Source: Alphaproteobacteria bacterium (GTDB lineage Bacteria > Pseudomonadota > Alphaproteobacteria > RF32 > CAG-239). From it: a DNA stretch of 64,000 nt. The stretch covers positions 4,851 to 68,850 of the forward strand of contig JAFUTN010000003.1 in assembly GCA_017484225.1 (NCBI GenBank). Direction: 5' to 3'. The notes below the pieces were generated by a model. The model searched no databases. It was not told the origin of the DNA and worked only from the letters and a program-made list of their open reading frames with translations. A program made the position numbers and the translations under genes. Positions within the stretch are counted from its first letter, which is position 1; every line of letters begins with the position of its first letter. This document shows positions 3,614 to 64,000 of the stretch, piece by piece.

Positions 3614-3686
3614 AAAACAAAACATTCTTTACATTAACGTAAATATTTGATAACATCTTTTTCAGGATATGTAAAAGACGTATCTC

Positions 3687-3871
3687 AGGGGATTAGAAAA
3701 CCCTTAAAATAAACGCAAAACTTGTATATTCAAGTCCTTTTTTTATACCGATAAAACTCGTAAATGGGTGTGATGTCGGTGAATAAGGCTATATGCTCAA
3801 TAAACTGAGCCGTTTTTAACGTTTATTTTACGGTTTTCTAACATCCGCCCACCGATTCAGGTGGCTTTTTT
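3687..3871 (+). promoter_or_regulatory. Structured leader RNA, copy 1 (degenerate variant), ending in an intrinsic terminator
   Basis: Has the family blocks AACCCT, GATGTCGGTGAATAAGG, GAGCC, ACGGTTTTCTAACATCCGCCC. Helices are AAAATAAACG (3706-3715) / CGTTTATTTT (3820-3829) and TTAGAAAACC (3693-3702) / GGTTTTCTAA (3832-3841). Terminator is CCACC-GATTCA-GGTGG-CTTTTTT (3849-3871). Confidence 0.75.
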
Positions 3872-3895
3872 GTAAACTCTTTTGATTTTGAAAGG

Positions 3896-4621
3896 ATGTT
3901 TGAAATGAAACATTTGTTATTTATTTTTTGTTTTATCGGTGCCGGTGCTGCTTTTGCCGAAACATGGAATTGCGGACCGGCAACTGACGGGGTGTATAGT
4001 GACAGCGTTAAATGCACGTATGATGAGGCAACAAAAACGCTTACCATATCAGGCGAAGGAGAAATGGGCGATTATAATGCTATAGATATTAATGGAGAGG
4101 ACGTATCCGATACACCATGGCTAAGAAAAGATATTGTTCACGCCGTTGTGGAAAAAGGTGTAACCACAATCGGAGACAGAGTATTTAAGGCATTATACAA
4201 TTTGGAAGATGTCACCGGATTGGAAAATATAACTTCTGTCGGCATAGCTTCTTTTTCTCAGGCACATAAGCTAGAAAGTGTAGACCTTCCTAATGTGCAA
4301 AATGTAGGCAGCAGCGCTTTTTATAGAACATTGAATTTGCAGTATGCAGGAATACCGGATGGTGTTATATTTGGCTACCGACAAGATCAGCCTGATGTAT
4401 TTGAAGGTTCTATGATTCCTAATTGCAAAACCGGAGACTGCGGAAGCTGCGGAGAAAAATTCGTGCAAGCGGGAGTTGGTTGTGTAAATGATTGCTATGT
4501 CGGATATTATCCGACGAATCAAGGATACTGCAAAATAATTAAACTCCGTTACACCCTGCCGGAAGCGGATGCGGCAACAAGTAATGACAATGAAAACACG
4601 ATTGAGTGGATTTTTGAGTAA
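3896..4621 (+). CDS. Secreted BspA-type LRR / Cys-rich protein, paralog 1 (IEWIFE-tag family)
   Basis: 241 aa. Signal peptide with AFA-ETW cleavage-like site, LRR_5-like repeats (..IGDRVF..L..V.GLENITSVG..AF..), a CGSCGEKFVQAGVGC module and the C-terminal RYTLPEADAATSNDNENTIEWIFE. The true start is probably the second ATG at 3905, because the first ATG overlaps the AAAGGA SD. Confidence 0.85.
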   Translation: MFEMKHLLFIFCFIGAGAAFAETWNCGPATDGVYSDSVKCTYDEATKTLTISGEGEMGDYNAIDINGEDVSDTPWLRKDIVHAVVEKGVTTIGDRVFKALYNLEDVTGLENITSVGIASFSQAHKLESVDLPNVQNVGSSAFYRTLNLQYAGIPDGVIFGYRQDQPDVFEGSMIPNCKTGDCGSCGEKFVQAGVGCVNDCYVGYYPTNQGYCKIIKLRYTLPEADAATSNDNENTIEWIFE

Positions 4622-4711: not shown

Positions 4712-6064
4712 ATGGATAAGTTTGTTCGCATAATCGGTGCCGGTTTAGCCGGATGCGAGGCTGCATGGCAGCTGGCAAAAAGAGGTATAGATGTTGAACT
4801 GGTAGAAATGAAACCGCAAAAACATTCACCGGCTCACAAAAAAAATTCTTTTGCCGAACTCGTGTGCTCAAATTCTTTTCGTGCGGATGATTTTGAGCAT
4901 AATGCCGTGGGTCTTATGCATCAGGAAATGCGTTTGTTCGGCTCACTGATAATGGATTGCGCCGACAAAACAAAAGTTCCGGCCGGAGGTGCCTTAGCTG
5001 TTGACCGTGACGGTTTTTCAAATATGGTAACGCAACGCTTAAAAGAACAAAAAAATATTCATTTTGTAACTCAAGAAATAACAGATTTTCCGGCAGAAAA
5101 TGATGCGTTAACCATTATTGCCACCGGACCGCTGACAAGCGAAAATTTCATTAAAGCGATTTTGCAGAAAACGGACAATCAGTCTCTTTCGTTTTATGAT
5201 GCCATTGCTCCGGTTGTTTTTAAGGAAAGCATAGATTTTTCAAAAGCTTGGTTTCAATCAAGATATGACAAAGGGGATAAGTTTGATTATATCAACTGCC
5301 CTCTTGGCAAAGAACAATATTACAAATTTGTGGATGAACTGTTAAAAGCAGAAAAAATGCCTTTTCATGATTTTGAAGAACCTCATTATTTTGACGGTTG
5401 TCTGCCGATTGAAGTTATGGCGGAAAGAGGAGCAGATACTCTGCTTTTCGGTCCGATGAAACCTGTCGGGCTGACAAATCCAAATTCGGCGGAAAATCCT
5501 TATGCCGTTGTGCAATTAAGACAAGACAATAAGGAAGATACTTTGCGGAATATTGTCGGATTTCAAACAAAACTCAAGCATGGTGAACAAACCAGAATAT
5601 TTAAGATGATACCGGGACTTGAAAATGCCGAGTTTGCCCGCTTGGGAGGTATTCATAAAAACACATTTATTAAAAGTCCGCTGCTCTTAGATAAATTTTT
5701 GCGCTTAAAAAAACAACCGAATGTAATGTTTGCCGGACAAATAACCGGTTGCGAGGGATATGTTGAAAGTGCAAATGTCGGAATGACTGCCGGCTATTTT
5801 GCCTCAAAACTGGTTCAAAATAAAACTCCGATTATCCCTCCCGATACCACGGCAACGGGAGCCATGCTCGGACATCTTTCGGACGCAACAGACATAGAAA
5901 ATTATCAGCCTATGAATATAAATTTTGGAATTTTTCCTTTAATTCAGGGTGAAACAACCATAAACGGAAAATTTCGCAAAATAAAAGGTGCCGAACGGAA
6001 AGCCGCTTATTGCGAGCGAGCATTAAGAGATTTTAAACAATGGCTGGAGCTGATTAATGCTTGA
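4712..6064 (+). CDS. trmFO: Methylenetetrahydrofolate--tRNA-(uracil54-C5)-methyltransferase
   Basis: 450 aa. N-terminal FAD fold IIGAGLAGCEAAWQLA and overall TrmFO/Gid-like sequence (GQITGCEGYVES). Confidence 0.9.
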   Translation: MDKFVRIIGAGLAGCEAAWQLAKRGIDVELVEMKPQKHSPAHKKNSFAELVCSNSFRADDFEHNAVGLMHQEMRLFGSLIMDCADKTKVPAGGALAVDRDGFSNMVTQRLKEQKNIHFVTQEITDFPAENDALTIIATGPLTSENFIKAILQKTDNQSLSFYDAIAPVVFKESIDFSKAWFQSRYDKGDKFDYINCPLGKEQYYKFVDELLKAEKMPFHDFEEPHYFDGCLPIEVMAERGADTLLFGPMKPVGLTNPNSAENPYAVVQLRQDNKEDTLRNIVGFQTKLKHGEQTRIFKMIPGLENAEFARLGGIHKNTFIKSPLLLDKFLRLKKQPNVMFAGQITGCEGYVESANVGMTAGYFASKLVQNKTPIIPPDTTATGAMLGHLSDATDIENYQPMNINFGIFPLIQGETTINGKFRKIKGAERKAAYCERALRDFKQWLELINA

Positions 6065-10321: not shown

Positions 10322-10391
10322 TAAATATTGTTTCTTTACAAAAAAACTTTCTTTTGCTAAAGTAATTCTACGGTATGAAAAAACATGCCGG

Positions 10392-10559
10392 AGGGCGTCA
10401 CAACCCTAAACAGAAACGGTTGCACATATTTGCAACAACAAAATGTGCTGGTATTCGCGTTTGTGCGGATGTCAGCTGAATAAGGTTATGCCGAATAGGT
10501 TGAGCCGTCTGTTTCTGTACGGTTTGTGAACATCCGCCCGTTTTTGAACGGGATTTTTT
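10392..10559 (+). promoter_or_regulatory. Structured leader RNA, copy 2, ending in an intrinsic terminator
   Basis: Sequence AGGGCGTCACAACCCT ... GCGGATGTCAGCTGAATAAGG ... GAGCC ... ACGGTTTGTGAACATCCGCCC. Helices are ACAGAAAC/GTTTCTGT and CAC-AACC/GGTT-T-GTG. Terminator is CCCGTT-TTTG-AACGGG-ATTTTTT. Confidence 0.8.
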
Positions 10560-10585
10560 GTTAACTTTTTTAATTTAATGAAAGG

Positions 10586-11443
10586 ATGTTTGAAATGAAA
10601 CATTTAATACTTGCGGTAGCATTAACTTTTTTTGCCACACAGACGAATGCCGAAACTGCCGGAATTATCGGAACATGGCCTTGCGGTGCCGATTGCACGG
10701 CAACCCTTGATGATAAGGGAAATTTTCTGGTTGTCGGCAACGGACCAATGAATGACTATGGAACTACTCATGCATCTAATGGAGCGCCATTATTAACTAC
10801 TGCACCTTGGGCAGAACACCTTAGAGAAATTAAAAACATTGAAATAAACGGTGTCTCAAATGTTGGAAGAGATGCTTTTTTTTACAATGAAGGAGGCTCT
10901 CTAAAGCTACAATCCATAAAATTTGATGACACCGTTGAAACCATAAAAGGCGGTGCATTCCATAAAACAGAGTGTTCATATATTGAGCTGCCCGATTCTA
11001 TCAAAAAAATAGAAAGTTACGCCTTTTCAGGGCGCACAGAAATAGTTGTTCCCGATACATTAAATTCTATTACAGGAGACAGGCCTTTTGGTCAATATGC
11101 ATTAACAAATCTAAAAATTGTATGCAGAGGAAATAATTGTTTAAATGTTGAAAATTTATTTAAAAAATATACTCGCTATTTTGATGGTGCATGGATAACG
11201 GAAGATTTAAGCAATAATGTATATCTTGCCGGAGAAAATCAGTGCAATAGTGCAAAATATTATTGGACCGGCGGTTTGTGCAATAATCGCCCGACCGACG
11301 GAAGTGCAATAGAATGTGATGAAGGGTGGTATGCTACCAATAAAGATGTATGCGCAAGAATCAAGCTTCGCTATACCATACCGGAAGCCGACGAGGCAAC
11401 AAGCAACGATAACGAAAATACGATTGAGTGGATTTTTGAATGA
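10586..11443 (+). CDS. Secreted BspA-type LRR / Cys-rich protein, paralog 2
   Basis: 285 aa. Signal peptide, IIGTWPCGADCTATLDD N-terminal module, LRR-like repeats, and a C-terminal module CNSAKYYWTGGLCNNRPTDGSAIECDEGWYATNKDVCARIKLRYTIPEADEATSNDNENTIEWIFE. The likely start is the second ATG at 10595. Confidence 0.85.
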   Translation: MFEMKHLILAVALTFFATQTNAETAGIIGTWPCGADCTATLDDKGNFLVVGNGPMNDYGTTHASNGAPLLTTAPWAEHLREIKNIEINGVSNVGRDAFFYNEGGSLKLQSIKFDDTVETIKGGAFHKTECSYIELPDSIKKIESYAFSGRTEIVVPDTLNSITGDRPFGQYALTNLKIVCRGNNCLNVENLFKKYTRYFDGAWITEDLSNNVYLAGENQCNSAKYYWTGGLCNNRPTDGSAIECDEGWYATNKDVCARIKLRYTIPEADEATSNDNENTIEWIFE

Positions 11444-22214: not shown

Positions 22215-22318
22215 ATTTATATATCCTTCTTTTTTCCGGTTAAACCTCCGCAGAAACTCGGCCTTTCGGCACCGGAGCGAAAAACTTTTCAGCCTTCCGC
22301 CTGTCTGCGTGTGTAATT

Positions 22319-22403: not shown

Positions 22404-23126
22404 TTATTCAAATATCCACTCAATCCAATTTTCATTGTCATCAGAAGTCAATTCATCTGCTTCTTGTATAGTGTATCTTGTTCTATATACCGGTATTTCT
22501 TTAACAAAATTTCCCATATTCAGCAACGAAGAAACATAAGTTCTACAACTATCCTCAGAACAAGAATTTATTATTTCATCTTTACAGTCCGCAGCATTTT
22601 TTTCCAAACAATAAATATTGGATTCCGGTGATATTGTTGTATTATTAAACAAATTTGCCATATAGTTTACAGCTCCGGATAAAATAATATCTCCTGAAAT
22701 GTTATTACCCTTAAACACTTCCCGATCTATTCCGTTAAGTTGTATTTGACCTTCTTTTCCTACAATATTTGCACCCAATCCCAAAAAAGCATAAGCTCCT
22801 ACGCTAAAATCACCGTCAATAACTACCGTTTTAACGGTTATTTCTCCATTTCCACTCGGAAATGTCTTTTTGCTGGTATCCGTTTGATAGGAAAACGGCA
22901 TAAATGCACCCGCTTTTATTGTTGCATTTTCTCCTGTTGCCTTAACGGTCAAGGTTTCTGTTTCCAAATCATAACTGTAAGTGCAACCTGTGCCGCAATT
23001 ATTTTCAATATCCGGTTTCCATTCATTGCACGAAACGGCATAACCGTCGTAGCATTCAACCGCCTCTGCCGTTTGAAAATTAAACATTACAAAAACAAAA
23101 AATATAAAAAACTTCATAACAAACAT
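22404..23126 (-). CDS. Secreted Cys-rich repeat protein, paralog 4 (most divergent family member)
   Basis: 240 aa. Signal peptide, divergent repeat core, and C-terminus RTRYTIQEADELTSDDNENWIEWIFE. The likely start is the second ATG at 23117. Confidence 0.8.
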   Translation of the reverse strand: MFVMKFFIFFVFVMFNFQTAEAVECYDGYAVSCNEWKPDIENNCGTGCTYSYDLETETLTVKATGENATIKAGAFMPFSYQTDTSKKTFPSGNGEITVKTVVIDGDFSVGAYAFLGLGANIVGKEGQIQLNGIDREVFKGNNISGDIILSGAVNYMANLFNNTTISPESNIYCLEKNAADCKDEIINSCSEDSCRTYVSSLLNMGNFVKEIPVYRTRYTIQEADELTSDDNENWIEWIFE

Positions 23127-23153
23127 CCTCTTTGGTTATTTTTCAAAACTATT

Positions 23154-23314
23154 AAAAAAACCACCTCAAATGGTGGGCGGATGTTAGTAAACCGTATATA
23201 CGCAAACGGCTCAACCTATTCGGTATAACCTTATTCAGCTGACATCCGCTCAAAGCAAATACCAGCAAAAAGCCGTTAAACAACGACTGCGTATATTCAG
23301 GGTTACTACGCCCT
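23154..23314 (-). promoter_or_regulatory. Structured leader RNA, copy 3 of the shared class, ending in an intrinsic terminator
   Basis: RNA sense: AGGGCGTAGTAACCCT ... GCGGATGTCAGCTGAATAAGGTTATACCGAATAGGTTGAGCC ... ACGGTTTACTAACATCCGCCC. Helices are ATATACGCA/TGCGTATAT and AGT-AACC/GGTT-T-ACT. Terminator is CCACC-ATTTGA-GGTGG-TTTTTTT. Confidence 0.8.
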
Positions 23315-23383
23315 AAAGTGGTTTTGTATCCCACTCTGCAAATATTCTAGCAAAAAAAGATTTTTTGTAAAGATTTTTTGTTT

Positions 23384-41709: not shown

Positions 41710-42414
41710 TCACTCAAAAATCCATTCTATCGTGTTTTCGTTGTCATCACTTGTTGCCGCATCTGCTTCCGGCAATGTGTAACGTGTGCGCGTGCAAAAC
41801 CCGTAATATGAAGTATATCCTTCAGGACACGAAGAAACACAACCAACTCCCGCTTGCACGAATTTTTCTCCGCAACTCCAACATTCTCCGGTTTTATGAC
41901 AATTCGGAATTTTTGAATTTTGAAAAGGTGTTTCTCCCCCACCAAATTCATCTTCCGAAAAAACAACATCTTCCGGAAGTTCAATATATTCCAATAATCT
42001 GGTACCCTTAAATGCTCTGCTTCCGATTTCCTGCACATTAGGCAAAAAAAGATTTTTTAAACTGTAAGTATAGGCAAAAGCAGAGTTTCCGATTTTTGTG
42101 ATATTTTCAAGTCCTGAAACATCACTAAGATTATGTAAATTATGAAAGACTCTGTTTCCAATGCTTGTAACATTACCTTCAACCACGGCGTGCCTTATAT
42201 CTTTTCCTTGCCATGGTGTGTATATATCTTTTACATAATCCCCCATTTCGCCTTCACCGGAAATTGTTAAAGTTTTACTTATCTCATTATACGTGCATTT
42301 AACGCTGTCACTATATACACCATTAGTTGCAGGTCCGCAGTTCCATGTTTCGGCAAAAGCAGCACCGGCACCGATAAAACAAAAAATAAATAACAAATGT
42401 TTCATTTCAAACAT
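41710..42414 (-). CDS. Secreted BspA-type LRR / Cys-rich protein, paralog 5
   Basis: Starts at MFEMKHLL (42414; the second ATG at 42405 is more likely). The first ~45 codons are nearly identical in nucleotide sequence to paralog 1. C-terminus is CGEKFVQAGVGCVSSCPEGYTSYYGFCTRTRYTLPEADAATSDDNENTIEWIFE. The track ORF extension to 42543 runs through the leader RNA. Confidence 0.85.
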   Translation of the reverse strand: MFEMKHLLFIFCFIGAGAAFAETWNCGPATNGVYSDSVKCTYNEISKTLTISGEGEMGDYVKDIYTPWQGKDIRHAVVEGNVTSIGNRVFHNLHNLSDVSGLENITKIGNSAFAYTYSLKNLFLPNVQEIGSRAFKGTRLLEYIELPEDVVFSEDEFGGGETPFQNSKIPNCHKTGECWSCGEKFVQAGVGCVSSCPEGYTSYYGFCTRTRYTLPEADAATSDDNENTIEWIFE

Positions 42415-42438
42415 CCTTTCAAAATCAAAAGAGTTTAC

Positions 42439-42624
42439 AAAAAAGCCACCTGAATCGGTGGGCGGATGTTCAGAAACCATACAAGTATTAAGATGGCTCG
42501 GCGTTTTCGCGCAAAAAGCCTTATTGCACCGACATCCGCTCAAAACAGAATGAACGAATTATCGGTTTAAACCTCAAAAAATCACAAACTTGTGACTAAT
42601 ACTTGTAAAGGGTTCTGACGCCCT
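42439..42624 (-). promoter_or_regulatory. Structured leader RNA, copy 4 of the shared class, ending in an intrinsic terminator
   Basis: RNA sense: AGGGCGTCAGAACCCT ... GCGGATGTCGGTGCAATAAGGC ... CGCCGAGCC ... TGGTTTCTGAACATCCGCCC. Helices are TACAAGTATTA/TAATACTTGTA and CAG-AACC/GGTT-T-CTG. Terminator is CCACC-GATTCA-GGTGG-CTTTTTT. Confidence 0.8.
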
Positions 42625-42749
42625 GAAGTGCGCTTATTTCACACTCTGTTCTTCATAATAGCAAATAATTTTTCTTTTGCAATTAAAAAAGTGTGGTGTT
42701 TTATTAAGCCTTTTTTAAAAAGAATTGATGTAAAATCAGGCCAAGTTTT

Positions 42750-47284: not shown

Positions 47285-47370
47285 CTGCATTTTAAGTTAC
47301 GGAATTAAAATCTTTACAAACATAAACTTTTTTGATAACCTTTTGACGAAGTATGTAAAAAACCTACTTT

Positions 47371-47544
47371 AGGGCGTAGCAACCCTTTGAAAAAATCTGT
47401 CGTTTTATGACGATATGTATGCCGATTTCGCATGTATTGATGTGCGGATGTCGGTGTTATAAGGCTTAAAGCACGAAATCGCCGAGCCGATTTGATTTTT
47501 TCACGGTTTGCTAACATCCGCCCACCATTTAAGGTGGCTTTTTT
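47371..47544 (+). promoter_or_regulatory. Structured leader RNA, copy 5 of the shared class, ending in an intrinsic terminator
   Basis: AGGGCGTAGCAACCCT ... GCGGATGTCGGTGTTATAAGGC ... CGCCGAGCC ... ACGGTTTGCTAACATCCGCCC. Helices are GAAAAAATC (47389-47397) / GATTTTTTC (47494-47502) and AGC-AACC/GGTT-T-GCT. Terminator is CCACC-ATTTAA-GGTGG-CTTTTTT. Confidence 0.8.
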
Positions 47545-47571
47545 ATTAATTTTTTTAACTTTAATGAAAGG

Positions 47572-48387
47572 ATGTTTGTAATGAAAAAAGTTAGCTTAAT
47601 TTGCTTTTTTATTCTTTTATCACTAAATGCGAAAGCAAAAATTATCGGCACATGGCCATGCGGAGATGATTGCACGGCAACTCTTGATGACAGCGGGCAT
47701 TTCAAGGTTACCGGAACCGGTGCTACACTGACCTATGGTCATTATTCGCAACCATGGAGCGATAAACTTTCACAGATAACTTCGGTGGAAATAGAAGGTT
47801 TAACGACTATAAACACCAATCTGACTTATTTTTCTCCGATTACGGAATTGAAATTAAGTGATTCCGTTAAGAATATTCTCGGTGGATTTGAAGGTAATCA
47901 CTTGCAAAAGCTGGAACTTCCCGACTCTGTGGAAAGAATTTCAAATTATGCCTTGGCAAGCTCTTCTCTTGTTGAAATTATTGTTCCGGATTCTATTTTA
48001 TCGTTTGGTGGACCGAATAGTTTGGGAGGGCTTGGGCAAATACAAGATAAAAACATCATTTGTCGCGGAGATAATTGCGATAAAGTATCAGATTTGCTCA
48101 AAAATTACATAATCACATACAAAATTAACGGAGAATATCATACAGCCGATGTCAGCGACAGGATGTCATTAGCCGGGGAAAATCAGTGCAACAGTGCAAA
48201 ATATTATTGGACCGGCGGTTTGTGTAATAATCGCCCGACCGACGGAAGTGCAATAGAATGTGACGAAGGGTGGTATGCTACCAATAAAGATGTGTGTGCC
48301 AGAATTAAAATACGTTACACCATTCCGGAAGCAGATGAATTAACCTCAAATGACAACGAAAATATGATTGAGTGGATTTTTGAGTAA
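47572..48387 (+). CDS. Secreted LRR / Cys-rich protein, paralog 6
   Basis: 271 aa. Has the IIGTWPCGDDCTATLDD N-terminal module, like paralog 2. Its C-terminal ~60 aa are almost identical to paralog 2 and it ends IRYTIPEADELTSNDNENMIEWIFE. The likely start is 47581. Confidence 0.85.
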   Translation: MFVMKKVSLICFFILLSLNAKAKIIGTWPCGDDCTATLDDSGHFKVTGTGATLTYGHYSQPWSDKLSQITSVEIEGLTTINTNLTYFSPITELKLSDSVKNILGGFEGNHLQKLELPDSVERISNYALASSSLVEIIVPDSILSFGGPNSLGGLGQIQDKNIICRGDNCDKVSDLLKNYIITYKINGEYHTADVSDRMSLAGENQCNSAKYYWTGGLCNNRPTDGSAIECDEGWYATNKDVCARIKIRYTIPEADELTSNDNENMIEWIFE

Positions 48388-48614: not shown

Positions 48615-49358
48615 TTATTCAAAAATCCATTCAATCATATTTTCGTTATCATTACTTGTCGCCGCATCAGCTTCCGGTAAGGTATAGCGTTTGCGCGTGC
48701 AAAACCCATAATATGAAGTATATCCTGTATAACAACTACTTACACACCCAACTCCCGCTTGCACAAATTTTTCTCCGCAACTTCCGCATTCTCCGGTTTT
48801 TCGGCAGTTTGATAATTTTGAACCACCAAAAGTCTCTCTATTACTGGCTGCAACCGTATCCGGACCATAGATAACGCCATCCGGAATACCGACATATTCC
48901 AGGCTACTTGTTCCATAAAAAGCGATACCACCTATTTCCTGCACATTAGGTAAATCTATGCTTATCAAAGAAGCGGCTCCATAAAAGGCAGTATCTCCGA
49001 CAGAAACTATATTTTCTGTGCCTTCAATATCTTGCAAATTACGAGCATTCTTAAAAGTTCTGGCTCCGATACTGGTTACATTGCCTTCCACAACTGCATG
49101 AACGATATCTTTACCAAACCATGGGGCAGTAGATCCGTCTTTTCCATTCACACTAGCATAAGGATAATCACCCATTTCTCCCTCGCCGGAAATTGTTAAA
49201 GTTTTTGTTGCCTCATCATAGGTGCATTTCACGCTGTCACTGTATACCCCGTCGGTTGCCGGCCCGCAGTTCCATGTTTCGGCTCTTGCTTTATTTACCA
49301 AAACAAAAATTAAAGAAAATATAAGTCCTAAAAATCCAAAACGTTTCATTTCAAACAT
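48615..49358 (-). CDS. Secreted BspA-type LRR / Cys-rich protein, paralog 7
   Basis: 247 aa. ETWNCGPATDGVYSDSVKCTYDEATKTLTISGEGEMGDY is identical to paralog 1. Has LRR_5-like repeats and the C-terminus GYTSYYGFCTRKRYTLPEADAATSNDNENMIEWIFE. The likely start is 49349. Confidence 0.85.
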   Translation of the reverse strand: MFEMKRFGFLGLIFSLIFVLVNKARAETWNCGPATDGVYSDSVKCTYDEATKTLTISGEGEMGDYPYASVNGKDGSTAPWFGKDIVHAVVEGNVTSIGARTFKNARNLQDIEGTENIVSVGDTAFYGAASLISIDLPNVQEIGGIAFYGTSSLEYVGIPDGVIYGPDTVAASNRETFGGSKLSNCRKTGECGSCGEKFVQAGVGCVSSCYTGYTSYYGFCTRKRYTLPEADAATSNDNENMIEWIFE

Positions 49359-49385: not shown

Positions 49386-49572
49386 AAAAAAACCCGCTTC
49401 AAAAAGACGGGCGGATGTTAGCAAACCGTATTCTATCAACCGGCTCGGCGTTTTCGCGCTTTTTATAAGAGCCTTATTACACCGACATCCGCTCCACAAA
49501 AAAGAACGAAGTCGGTAAACACCAACAAATCGCAATAAATGCGACCGATAGAATAAAGGGTTGCTACGCCCT
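49386..49572 (-). promoter_or_regulatory. Structured leader RNA, copy 6 of the shared class, ending in an intrinsic terminator
   Basis: RNA sense: AGGGCGTAGCAACCCT ... GCGGATGTCGGTGTAATAAGGC ... CGCCGAGCC ... ACGGTTTGCTAACATCCGCCC. Helices are ATTCTATC/GATAGAAT and AGC-AACC/GGTT-T-GCT. Terminator is CCCGTCTT..GAAGCGGG-TTTTTTT. Confidence 0.8.
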
Positions 49573-49651
49573 GAAGTGTACTTATCTCACACTCCGGAGT
49601 TGATTTTAACAGAAGTAATAAAAATTGTAAAGTCCGAAATATATGCTGATT

Positions 49652-63014: not shown

Positions 63015-63115
63015 AAATTTGACAAATTATCAACAAAAAATAATCCGGAAAAGAATCTTTACAAATAATCAAAATTTTGATAGGTTACAAACAGAATACG
63101 AAATCAGCGTATTTC

Positions 63116-63291
63116 AGGGCGTGACAACCCTTTGTAAAACTCTGTCGCAATACTTTGCGAACAAATTACCGATAGTTCGTTCTTGTAATGAGCGGATGTC
63201 GGTGTTATAAGGCTTTAGCACGAAATCGCCGAGCCGTTTTGAGTTTTACACGGTTTGTCAACATCCGCCCACCAATTCAGGTGGCTTTTTT
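63116..63291 (+). promoter_or_regulatory. Structured leader RNA, copy 7 of the shared class, ending in an intrinsic terminator
   Basis: AGGGCGTGACAACCCT ... GCGGATGTCGGTGTTATAAGGC ... CGCCGAGCC ... ACGGTTTGTCAACATCCGCCC. Helices are GTAAAACTC/GAGTTTTAC and GAC-AACC/GGTT-T-GTC. Terminator is CCACC-AATTCA-GGTGG-CTTTTTT. Confidence 0.8.
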
Positions 63292-63314
63292 ATTAACTTT
63301 TTTAGATTAAGAGG

Positions 63315-64000
63315 ATGTTTGATATGAAATATTTAGCATTTACTTTTTGTTTTATCGGTGCAGGTGTTGCCTTTGCCGAAACATGGAATTGCGGACCGGC
63401 AACCGACGGGGTATACAGCGACAGTGTTAAATGCACGTATGATGAGGAAAGTAAGACTTTAACCATTTCCGGCGAAGGACCAATGGGGAATTATGCTTCA
63501 ATAAATAATAACTCCACGGCTCCGTGGTATGGCAAAGATATTGTTCATGCCGTTATAGAAGGAAATGTAACAAGTATCGGAGACAGGGTATTTAAGCACG
63601 CTGAGAATTTAACAGATATTGTCGGGTTAGAAAATATAACACACCTTGGTTATGCCTCATTCAGTGGAGCCTCTTCACTGGTTAGTATTGATTTACCTAA
63701 TGTGCAGGAAATAGGCGGCGTTGCTTTTCATTATACATCAAGTCTTGAGTATGCCGGTATTCCGGATGATGTTACTTATGGTTCGGACCCTTTATCACGC
63801 GATAATTTTGAGGGTTCAAAATTATCAAATTGCCGAAAAACCGGAGAATGCGGCAGCTGCGGAGATAAATTTGTGCAAGCGGGAGTTGGGTGTGTTTCTT
63901 CGTGTCCTGAAGGATATACTTCATATTATGGGTTTTGCACGCGCACACGTTACACTCTGCCGGAAGCCGACGAGGCAACAAGTAATGATAACGAAAACAC
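63315..64000 (+). CDS. Secreted BspA-type LRR / Cys-rich protein, paralog 8 (3' end runs off the window)
   Basis: Not in the ORF track because no stop is reached. My own translation gives M(FDM)KYLAFTFCFIGAGVAFAETWNCGPATDGVYSDSVKCTYDEESKTLTISGEGPMGNY ... CGDKFVQAGVGCVSSCPEGYTSYYGFCTRTRYTLPEADEATSNDNEN. The likely start is 63324. Confidence 0.85.
   Translation, partial: MFDMKYLAFTFCFIGAGVAFAETWNCGPATDGVYSDSVKCTYDEESKTLTISGEGPMGNYASINNNSTAPWYGKDIVHAVIEGNVTSIGDRVFKHAENLTDIVGLENITHLGYASFSGASSLVSIDLPNVQEIGGVAFHYTSSLEYAGIPDDVTYGSDPLSRDNFEGSKLSNCRKTGECGSCGDKFVQAGVGCVSSCPEGYTSYYGFCTRTRYTLPEADEATSNDNEN

Follow-up and report, generated by a model that had tools for sequence, protein, structure and literature searches.

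A widespread family of proposed attenuator leader RNAs with c4/a1b1-like architecture precedes predicted surface and envelope genes of gut Alphaproteobacteria

The 64,000-nt window analyzed here (positions 4,851–68,850 of contig JAFUTN010000003.1, assembly GCA_017484225.1) comes from an Alphaproteobacteria bacterium and carries seven copies (c1–c7) of a structured RNA element, each directly before a gene, in most cases one for a leucine-rich repeat (LRR) protein. We found that these copies belong to a real, widespread and undescribed family of leaders: probable attenuators that combine an intrinsic terminator with a strand complementary to the Shine–Dalgarno sequence (anti-SD and SD, respectively) in an architecture resembling the c4/a1b1 module of phage P1. 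Our literature searches returned no description of this leader. Judged from the sequence, each copy is its own transcription unit made up of a promoter, a 5' hairpin, a structure of ~170 nt, a terminator, and the SD and start codon of the gene. With moderate confidence, we propose that the element is a cis-acting leader of ~200 nt that would gate its gene both at transcription termination and at ribosome access.

The first-pass annotation of the window had described three helices as being kept by compensatory change: a long-range pairing of copy-specific arms that follow AACCCT and precede ACGGTTT (helix i), the adjoining pairing of NNN-AACC with GGTT(T)-N'N'N' (helix ii) and an internal helix (iii). 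Alignment of the copies revealed strong compensatory change in all three. From the seven copies alone, RNAalifold recovered helices (i) and (ii), with double changes in 18 of 42 pairs. In an alignment of 99 sequences, which was fitted to a covariance model and so favours the structure, double changes were present in 30 of 42 pairs, 95.9% of cells were paired compared with 75.5% after shuffling, and the covariation score was 0.54, falling to 0.073 or less when partners were slid by 1–3 columns. The arms contain all four Watson–Crick pair types in comparable numbers, and the same diversity is seen at most positions of the long-range helix that (ii) and (i) form together. Since fitting cannot create four comparable pair types, the arm covariation holds despite the model-fitted alignment. 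Helix (iii) showed double changes in all six of its pairs in this alignment. Moreover, G·U cells outnumber A·C cells by 268 to 24, and therefore the fold belongs to the RNA of the downstream gene's strand. The covariation, the G·U excess and the position before the gene bear out the earlier idea of selection on RNA pairing in a gene-strand leader.

The arms are specific to each copy. Within a genome, an arm pairs with its own partner at a mean of −8.3 kcal/mol, whereas cross pairing between copies yields only −0.5 kcal/mol. The NNN triplet, the arms and two local hairpins (P0 and Pb) each have a single partner and are hypervariable, while neighbouring strands with two or three partners never change. 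The copy-specific helices can drift by compensatory change because each has only one partner, and the invariant blocks are conserved because such strands have two or three.

All seven copies were confirmed where the annotation had placed them (Table 1), dispersed among housekeeping genes. The 3' block AACATCCGCCC occurs exactly seven times in the window (0.84 expected) and the 5' block AGGGCGTNNNAACCCT six times (0.56 expected). Of the blocks that had been called invariant, the 3' block is thus exact in every copy, whereas the 5' block holds in six and is replaced by the variant AGGGGAT..AAAACCC in the copy at 3687 (c1). A covariance model (R1) built from the seven copies matched exactly those seven in the window and nothing else, and gave 92 further matches among fetched loci, nearly all of them full-length. 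The earlier description needed revision in places. The element is longer than had been marked, as it starts ~21 nt farther upstream with a covarying hairpin and includes the terminator. The sequence between the blocks, which had been taken to be unrelated among copies, includes a hairpin that covaries as well as a strand, GCCGAUUUC.., that is conserved and forms the complement of GCGGAUGUCGG.

Table 1. Features of leader copy c5 and the other leader copies in the window (CM, covariance model)
Feature	Position	Strand	Remarks
c5, sigma-70-type promoter	47313–47341	+	−35 TTTACA 47313–47318, 17-nt spacer, −10 TAACCT 47336–47341
c5, P0 5'-terminal hairpin (AGTATG/CCTACT)	47350–47368	+	double changes in 6/6 pairs, 96.6% of cells paired (99 sequences)
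c5, 5' closing strand AGGGCGT	47371–47377	+	partners CGCCC (register 1) or ACAUCC (register 2)
c5, long-range helix, 5' strand	47378–47397	+	NNN-AACC 47378–47384 (a1-like); arm TTGAAAAAATC 47387–47397 (b1-like)
c5, Pb small local hairpin (GTCG..CGAC type)	47399–47414	+	variable stem; in all window copies by eye and in minimum free energy folds
c5, segment 1 ATGCCGATTTCGCAT	47419–47433	+	pairs with segment 2 to give the H-alt hairpin
c5, segment 2, internal strand GCGGATGTCGGTG	47444–47456	+	5' strands of c4-type P1 and P2
c5, P2 loop and P2/P3 strands	47457–47489	+	conserved AATAAGGCT; CGCCGA 47480–47485 (P2 3'); GAGCCG 47484–47489 (P3 5')
c5, long-range helix, 3' strand	47494–47513	+	arm GATTTTTTCA 47494–47503 (b'-like, P3 loop), then CGGTTT-GCT-A 47504–47513
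c5, segment 3	47513–47523	+	AACATCC 47513–47519 (anti-SD, P1 3' strand); GCCC 47520–47523 common to terminator 5' arm
c5, intrinsic terminator CCCACC/GGTGG(C) + T6	47521–47544	+	hairpin and U run
c5, SD region AAAGGATGTT	47567–47576	+	GGATGTT, exact complement of AACATCC
c5, gene with start codons 47572 / 47581	47572–48387	+	BspA-type LRR gene, Pfam LRR_5
Copy c1	3666–3872	+	CM 133.7 bits; most degenerate (AGGGGAT, GTGATGTC); LRR gene 3896–4621 downstream, Pfam LRR_5
Copy c2	10372–10561	+	CM 163.6 bits; LRR gene 10586–11443 downstream, Pfam LRR_5
Copy c3	23153–23335	−	CM 173.7 bits; open reading frame 22404–23126 (−) downstream, no Pfam match
Copy c4	42438–42645	−	CM 197.2 bits; LRR gene downstream, start near 42411
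Copy c6	49386–49593	−	CM 174.1 bits; LRR gene 48615–49358 downstream, Pfam LRR_5
Copy c7	63095–63292	+	CM 200 bits; LRR gene start 63315/63324, runs past window end; Pfam LRR_5 match in 63315–63998

The anatomy of copy c5 is representative of features that recur across the family. A −35/N16–18/TAnnnT motif lies upstream of 78 of 95 family members and, in 65 of these 78, ends 7–9 nt before P0, the hairpin that probably forms the 5' end of the transcript. The 5' strand of the long-range helix is followed by Pb, with the consensus aGTCG...CGACTTAAA, which is seen in the alignment without a separate covariation score. Segment 2 can pair either with segment 1 or with ACATCCGC plus CGCCGA, and the Rfam C4 and sRNA-Xcc1 models (sRNA, small RNA) align it as the 5' strand of stem P1. 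Stem P2, whose stretch in c5 includes an AATAAGG loop, is the same as helix (iii) and has double changes in three of four pairs in an alignment of the 3' domain. Stem P3 displays GC-to-AU compensation, with CCG:CGG becoming CUA:UAG in a second sequence type (type II, below), and in copy c4 its changed pair is compensated as GAGCCA/TGGTTT. The CGGTTT-GCT-A stretch of c5 comprises the 3' strand of P3 and a junction resembling a' of c4 RNAs. Segment 3 contains AACATCC, invariant in the type found in the window (type I) and predicted to pair with segment 2, with the 5' closing strand or with the SD.

At the 3' end of the leader, a terminator-like hairpin with a U run is present in 97 of 98 family members, and its 5' arm always starts inside or directly after segment 3. 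Past the terminator, GGATGTT stands at the SD of all seven linked genes in the window; none of its nine other occurrences there (8.4 expected) is, judged by position, at a ribosome-binding site. A co-oriented open reading frame (ORF) starts within 140 nt in 89 of 99 copies, usually 20–35 nt past the U run. Because no room is left for a second promoter, the gene must be transcribed through the leader. In many copies an ATG lies inside the SD-like GGATG (47572/47581, 3896, 10586, 49358 and 63315), in frame with another ATG 9–12 nt downstream. The double ATG gives N-termini such as MFEMK.., MFVMK.. or MFNRMK.., and ORF callers place the beginning of these proteins within the SD, although translation more probably begins at the downstream ATG.

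Several strands of the leader have more than one partner, and the helices that they form are mutually exclusive. All folds considered here are energy predictions. In type I leaders, segment 1 pairs with its own segment 2 (the H-alt hairpin) at a mean duplex energy of −19.7 kcal/mol. H-alt covaries, as GCTGG/TTGAC accompanies TCAGC in c2, c3 and locus L029. Alternatively, segment 2 pairs with segment 3 as a c4-type P1, for which 100% of cells are paired. The resulting three-stem fold consists of P1 (CGGAUGU:ACAUCCG), P2 and P3 (GAGCCG:CGGUUU); 99.3% of its cells can pair, with three covarying pairs in P2, one in P3 and none in P1 within type I. CGGUU likewise has two partners, GAGCC in P3 and AACC in helix (ii), and GGGCGU of the 5' closing strand binds CGCCC in register 1 and ACAUCC in register 2. 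The terminator 5' arm begins with the CCC of CGCCC, which GGGCG:CGCCC and an extended P1 both use.

Unconstrained folding of type I leaders gave a rod, in which the long-range helix, H-alt, register 2 and the complete terminator coexist, as the minimum free energy (MFE) structure in 61 of 66 cases. The mean energy was −76.4 kcal/mol without constraints, −72.8 kcal/mol with register 1 forced and −58.8 kcal/mol with the three-stem fold forced. In transcripts that end before the terminator 3' arm, register 1 was the MFE structure in 65 of 69 cases, by 5.1 kcal/mol. The type I terminator arm is therefore predicted to be transiently covered and must be won back. Once the start of the mRNA was included, the predicted partner of AACAUCC was the SD region in 22 of 66 folds and the 5' strand in 34.

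A low-scoring match, L067:2789–2972 (−), had every conserved block changed in a matching way. The corresponding pattern (GGAAGGTAG ... TAGTT-NNN-AACTTCC) was found at more than 120 loci (L115–L224, for example L119:801–868, −) in the same metagenome-assembled genomes (MAGs) as type I; the window itself has no copy of this type II. From type I to type II, segment 1 changes from GCCGAUUUC.. to ACCUUCUGG.., segment 2 from CGGAUGU to UGGAAGG, segment 3 from AACAUCC to AACUUCC, P2 from UCGGCU:AGCCGA to GUAGCA:UGCUAC, P3 from CCG:CGG to CUA:UAG, and the SD from GGAUGUU to GGAAGUU. In other words, P1, P2, P3, H-alt, the anti-SD and the SD all change together, and the P3 change is compensated inside P3 and not in AACC. 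The SD follows the type of the leader closely: 32 GGATGTT and 2 GGAAGTT were counted behind type I, and 0 and 48, respectively, behind type II (Fisher 9e-21, uncorrected for relatedness). Most type II copies are followed by prepilin-like genes.

Type II also provides evidence on the terminator arm. Across 115 sequences, the tetranucleotide that precedes GGAAGG covaries with the one that directly follows CUUCC, in an extension of P1. The pairs are UA 65, CG 44, UG 3 and AU 2 at position 1; CG 101, UG 11 and UA 2 at position 2; GC 67, AU 31 and GU 16 at position 3; and GC 58, GU 23, AU 20 and AC 13 at position 4. In 113 of the 115 sequences, the four terminator-arm bases concerned also pair within the terminator stem. 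Since these bases covary in both helices, two incompatible helices are both maintained, and doubly covarying arm bases of this kind bear the apparent signature of an antiterminator/terminator pair. In energy terms, type II resembles type I: the rod with the terminator is the MFE structure in 88 of 108 leaders and the three-stem fold lies ~11 kcal/mol higher. Under a forced P1, 83 of 108 leaders paired their terminator arm with the internal strand.

A type II sub-group of 26 sequences from rabbit-gut MAGs (L116, L118, L121, L131, L132, L135 and L138) differs in its interior, which contains a perfect CCTTTTTTTGA/TCAAAAAAAGG hairpin. Behind several of these copies no ORF is obvious in the first 100 nt; what follows them is a conserved TTTTTTGCAACACTTTTTTTGCATTTTTTC stretch.

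We asked how widely the family is distributed. The pattern CGGTTTNNNAACATCCGCCC occurs at at least 111 loci, nearly all in gut 'Alphaproteobacteria bacterium' MAGs of human and ruminant origin, and both sequence types together give more than 200 instances. A MAG carries at least ~20 leader copies. The window itself matches a metagenome scaffold. Among 2.9 million viral contigs there was only a single chance match, so that the family is essentially absent there. Many leader copies were also seen in the CAVGVF01, CAVKTH01, CAVEOB01 and CAVBCV01 loci, from MAGs labelled as Eubacteriales, Bacteroidaceae, [Ruminococcus] gnavus or Lachnospiraceae; these non-alphaproteobacterial labels or the bins are probably wrong.

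The annotation had placed an LRR paralog behind every copy. This is true for six of the copies in the window, but not for c3, whose ORF has no LRR_5 match. Across the family, Pfam searches with 89 downstream genes identified BspA-type LRR proteins (9), autotransporters (4), PEGA (4), outer membrane protein beta-barrels (3), glycosyltransferases (2) and LicA-like kinases (2), as well as opacity-type and OmpA-type porins, pilin N-termini and Stealth. A signal-like N-terminus is present in 71 of the 89 proteins, including 18 that are prepilin-like and 19 with a lipobox. By these predictions, the downstream genes represent a surface and envelope set that is broader than LRR paralogs. Behind many type I leaders (L090, L042, L004, L092, L097, L016, L037, L067:3860–4804 and others) we observed an ORF family that begins with MYKNLKN.., has a common ..FNVILRRE.SEL.. 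stretch and matches no Pfam entry. The ORF behind c3 has a signal-like N-terminus and, unlike the other six, matches neither LRR_5 nor any other Pfam family. Just downstream of it, at 22222–22313 (−), lies an rpsB leader (RF01815, 41.9 bits), the sole Rfam match at gathering score in the window.

Comparison of copies within the window indicates that leader and gene need not travel together. Between the terminator and a point ~120 nt into the coding sequence (3840–4010 and 42300–42470), c1 and c4 share 100% identity, whereas their leaders are only 35–65% identical. Conversely, c2 and c3 have cores that are 97% identical and unrelated downstream coding sequences. In view of these opposite patterns, the leader behaves as a portable module. 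The c1/c4 and c2/c3 mosaics indicate recombination or gene conversion, with breakpoints in conserved blocks.

Taken as an attenuator, the element has a terminator between promoter and start codon and a conserved alternative helix that draws on some of the bases of the terminator 5' arm. In the rod, the predicted ground state, the copy-specific long-range helix would clamp the 5' and 3' parts together, H-alt would lock the internal strand GCGGAUGUCGG, and the terminator would form. The anti-SD AACAUCC would be either held weakly or paired with the SD GGAUGUU, and the gene would be off. The alternative would be the three-stem fold, in which P1 encloses P2 and P3 in a manner similar to the c4 RNA of phage P1. 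Its closing stem, formed by the internal strand and ACAUCCG, would extend into the first bases of the terminator 5' arm, so that the terminator would be weakened, the SD released and the gene switched on. The sequences themselves show the helices and that they exclude one another, as well as the terminator and the placement in the leader; which fold is on and which is off we infer from folding energies and covariation. Given its much lower predicted stability, the on fold would be reached only with the help of a factor, through processing or by a kinetic effect.

A number of findings weigh against this reading. The on fold is predicted to be 11–18 kcal/mol less stable than the rod. A nearly isoenergetic pseudoknot, in which the c4 fold would form with the arms still bound, was considered and rejected, as even a crude estimate places it 12–16 kcal/mol above the rod. 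No trigger was found: inspection by eye revealed no leader peptide, the window contained no trans-acting 'key', and there was no clue to a ligand. In type I, the GGGCG:CGCCC helix that is the MFE structure in 65 of 69 truncated transcripts is a rival antiterminator. In type II, covariation links the 5' strand, too, to the first terminator base, which is tracked by the base 5' of the closing strand (TA 55, CG 33, TG 12, CA 8). With such 5'-strand alternatives in both types, both the antiterminator proposed here and the direction assigned to the switch are provisional. The P1 core is invariant within a type, and the differences between types I and II may represent a single evolutionary event. 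Finally, SD:anti-SD pairing is part of the MFE structure in only 22 of 66 leaders.

Some more specific ideas were considered and dropped. We initially treated the long-range helix with GGGCG:CGCCC as the sole antiterminator and the c4 fold as the terminating state, and this was revised after the unconstrained folds and type II. A leader peptide at the conserved tATGCCGA was rejected by eye: it has neither an SD nor a conserved frame or stop codon, and the ATG is missing from type II. GGAUGU resembles the CsrA consensus. CsrA-like binding to GGA was set aside, since pairing explains the motif and type II changes it. Candidate 'keys' pairing with the arms from elsewhere in the window were at the level of chance.

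The element had originally been labelled a candidate riboswitch/attenuator. The attenuator half of this label is in agreement with its anatomy, as a terminator is present in 97 of 98 members and its arm takes part in covarying alternative helices. The riboswitch half is doubtful. In a true riboswitch, the clamped domain would bind a small molecule, for example a second messenger, and thereby shift the closing helix or the c4-type stem. The large conserved multi-helix domain with an expression platform is in line with this, as are the loop bases AAUAnGnCUAU and GCUnAAUA, kept in both types, and the two registers of the type I closing helix, whose difference of ~4–5 kcal/mol suggests a poised design. 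A regulon of pili, adhesins and surface proteins also resembles that of cyclic di-GMP riboswitches. On the other hand, most core bases change between the two types while the pairing scheme is kept, which is unusual for a ligand pocket; the different cores of the two types argue that it is the pairing scheme rather than a pocket that is conserved. Moreover, alternative pairing with multiple partners explains most of the invariant bases, the downstream gene set is broad, and no known riboswitch model matches.

It is also unlikely that the leader is a riboregulator of the c4 type, processed (for example by RNase P or RNase E) to an RNA of ~90–110 nt that would pair with its own or sister mRNAs, with the upstream a1b1-like strand as a built-in competitor. 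C4 antisense RNA is characteristically a ~77-nt RNA that RNase P processes. Processing by these enzymes has been cited for phage P1 c4 and for the Group 1 sRNAs of Acinetobacter baumannii, which also set a precedent for multi-copy processed C4-like sRNAs (PMC5320573). Full-length sub-threshold matches to the C4 and sRNA-Xcc1 models, always on the element and in the same register, are consistent with this possibility. So are the a1-b1 ... b'-a' topology, shared with phage P1, and the match between the anti-SD and the SD of family members. However, there is no copy-specific downstream target of the a2/b2 kind, and arm matches elsewhere in the window are at chance level. When such targets were sought, the longest complement to an arm averaged 5.56 nt downstream of its own copy and 5.44 nt downstream of others, and the idea was rejected; downstream of the leader, only the invariant AACAUCC matches, at the SD. 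In addition, the domain model misses phage P1 c4, the type II locus tested has no C4-clan match, and the family is nearly absent from viral contigs.

A related and more speculative scheme, which we regard as a long shot, is that the leaders make up an RNA-only addressing system for surface antigens. With a type-specific core (at least two orthogonal types per genome) and a copy-specific clamp as its basis, terminated or processed leaders would act on nascent transcripts in the manner of c4, either on the same gene by invading its own a1b1 clamp, or on all genes of a type through the common strands. If true, this would allow self-specific feedback or one-at-a-time (variable) expression of surface genes without protein regulators.

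The leader could instead be a constitutive 5' untranslated module, that is, a portable cassette of promoter and leader with protective hairpins and a leaky terminator that sets a low, fixed expression. The 5'-terminal hairpin, the rod-like ground state and the recombination of leaders independently of genes (c1/c4 compared with c2/c3) would fit such a module. We nevertheless consider it quite unlikely: a static structure would let all helices drift, whereas multi-partner strands are invariant right beside hypervariable neighbours (compare NNN with AACC:GGUU), and the alternative helices covary too. Last, a DNA-level repeat (a miniature inverted-repeat transposable element, an attC-like recombination site or an inversion site) is hardly tenable, for although the copies are numerous, lie in both orientations and have mosaic relations, and although NNNAAC ... 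GTTN'N'N' ends superficially resemble attC R boxes, the G·U excess is on the gene strand, position and orientation are fixed relative to the start codon, the copies do not form a cassette array, the arms are copy-specific rather than conserved terminal repeats, and promoter and terminator are within the conserved unit.

A cis-acting attenuator of the proposed kind would be of interest for several reasons. Almost nothing is known about gene control in uncultured gut Alphaproteobacteria, and here a single RNA design precedes a large part of what is predicted to be their surface repertoire, from BspA-type LRR proteins, pilins, autotransporters, porins and lipoproteins to enzymes for surface sugars. 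Whatever flips the leader probably sets how the cell presents itself to its host and to phages. The family is large, covaries well and is not in Rfam, and its two types with a single pairing scheme constitute a natural experiment on the evolution of bistable leaders. The leader may also derive from the phage c4/a1b1 design, as an offshoot that is chromosomal and acts in cis. Weinberg et al. (2010) observed an overlap of P1 stems with terminators in some c4 RNAs and proposed that these regulate in cis, an idea that is not known to have been taken up since.

How, then, does the leader relate to known RNAs? The annotation had matched it to no known family. In a formal sense this stands, as Rfam searches gave no match to the element at gathering score; yet the element does have relatives in design, as sub-threshold matches and the c4 topology indicate. 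On type I leaders, the C4 antisense RNA model (RF01695) scored 22.3–29.5 bits (gathering score 45) and sRNA-Xcc1 (RF02221), the best-scoring Rfam model, 25–36.2 bits (gathering score 53). These matches cover the 3' ~90 nt of type I, are full-length and keep one register; they were found in four of the window's seven copies and in each of the eight divergent loci tested, and never outside an element. By contrast, the single type II locus tested had no C4-clan match (E<=5), the c4-a1b1 model (RF03163) had no match in the window, and a reciprocal search of the phage P1 c4 locus with our 3'-domain model (R2) found nothing. Phage origin of the leader was considered and rejected, given the lone chance match in viral contigs and the surface-protein genes downstream.

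The likeness to c4 is most evident in the order of elements. The annotation of phage P1 runs from the promoter through a1 and b1 to c4, which has b' in the loop of P3 and a' in the junction that follows this stem, and then through a2 and b2 to the icd ribosome-binding site. Since the leader has the same 5'-a1-b1 ... b'-a'-3' order, helix (ii) corresponds to a1:a' and helix (i) to b1:b'. As with the c4 RNAs of phages P1 and P7 (RF01695, RF03163), the element lies in the leader of the gene that it would control, past the gene's own promoter, and it may adopt a three-stem fold in which P1 encloses P2 and P3. The loop b' and junction a' (UUUGCNAAC in the Rfam consensus, GGUUUNNNAAC here) are complementary to the upstream a1-b1, and, as in some c4 RNAs, the 3' strand of P1 overlaps a terminator. 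The differences are also considerable: scores stay below gathering thresholds, there is no downstream a2/b2, P1 has only 7–10 bp, and the upstream strand pairs far enough to compete with P3. The genes concerned are chromosomal ones for surface proteins instead of prophage icd/ant, with tens of copies per genome. We also noticed by eye that TTACGCCC, at 48299–48344 of phage P1 (L112 300–345), just upstream of c4, is complementary to the P1 5' strand of c4, GGGGCGTGA; this stretch is a possible counterpart of the H-alt hairpin.

Two other c4-related RNAs offer useful comparisons. sRNA-Xcc1, known from integron cassettes of Xanthomonas and Xylella with several copies per Xylella genome, lies upstream of symE in the same orientation. 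It is thus similar to our leader in being multi-copy and co-oriented with a downstream gene that it possibly controls. Unlike the leader, it is described as an sRNA of ~88 nt that acts in trans, and reports of it mention no 5' clamp; we saw no integron context around the leader copies. The A. baumannii Group 1 sRNAs (PMC5320573) are likewise a large C4-like family on one chromosome, whose members each carry a 5' extension (Region 1) together with specificity regions that vary. However, they reach the Rfam C4 model and seem to be processed stand-alone sRNAs, whereas the element described here is a leader directly before an ORF, with a terminator and an anti-SD.

Among attenuators, the closest parallel is with the trp type (1:2, 2:3, 3:4), since here, too, four segments form three exclusive hairpins, the last of which is the terminator; sequestration of the SD is added to this scheme. 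In contrast to the trp leader, no conserved leader peptide was seen by eye, and there is an extra, copy-specific long-range clamp. Unlike both classical attenuators and riboswitch platforms, the leader exists as two orthogonal sequence types within one genome. We do not file it as a member of the C4 family, because gathering scores are not reached, R2 misses phage P1 c4, the type II locus is unmatched, and a2/b2 and phage context are absent. Rather, the leader would work like a c4/a1b1 module fused to an attenuator.

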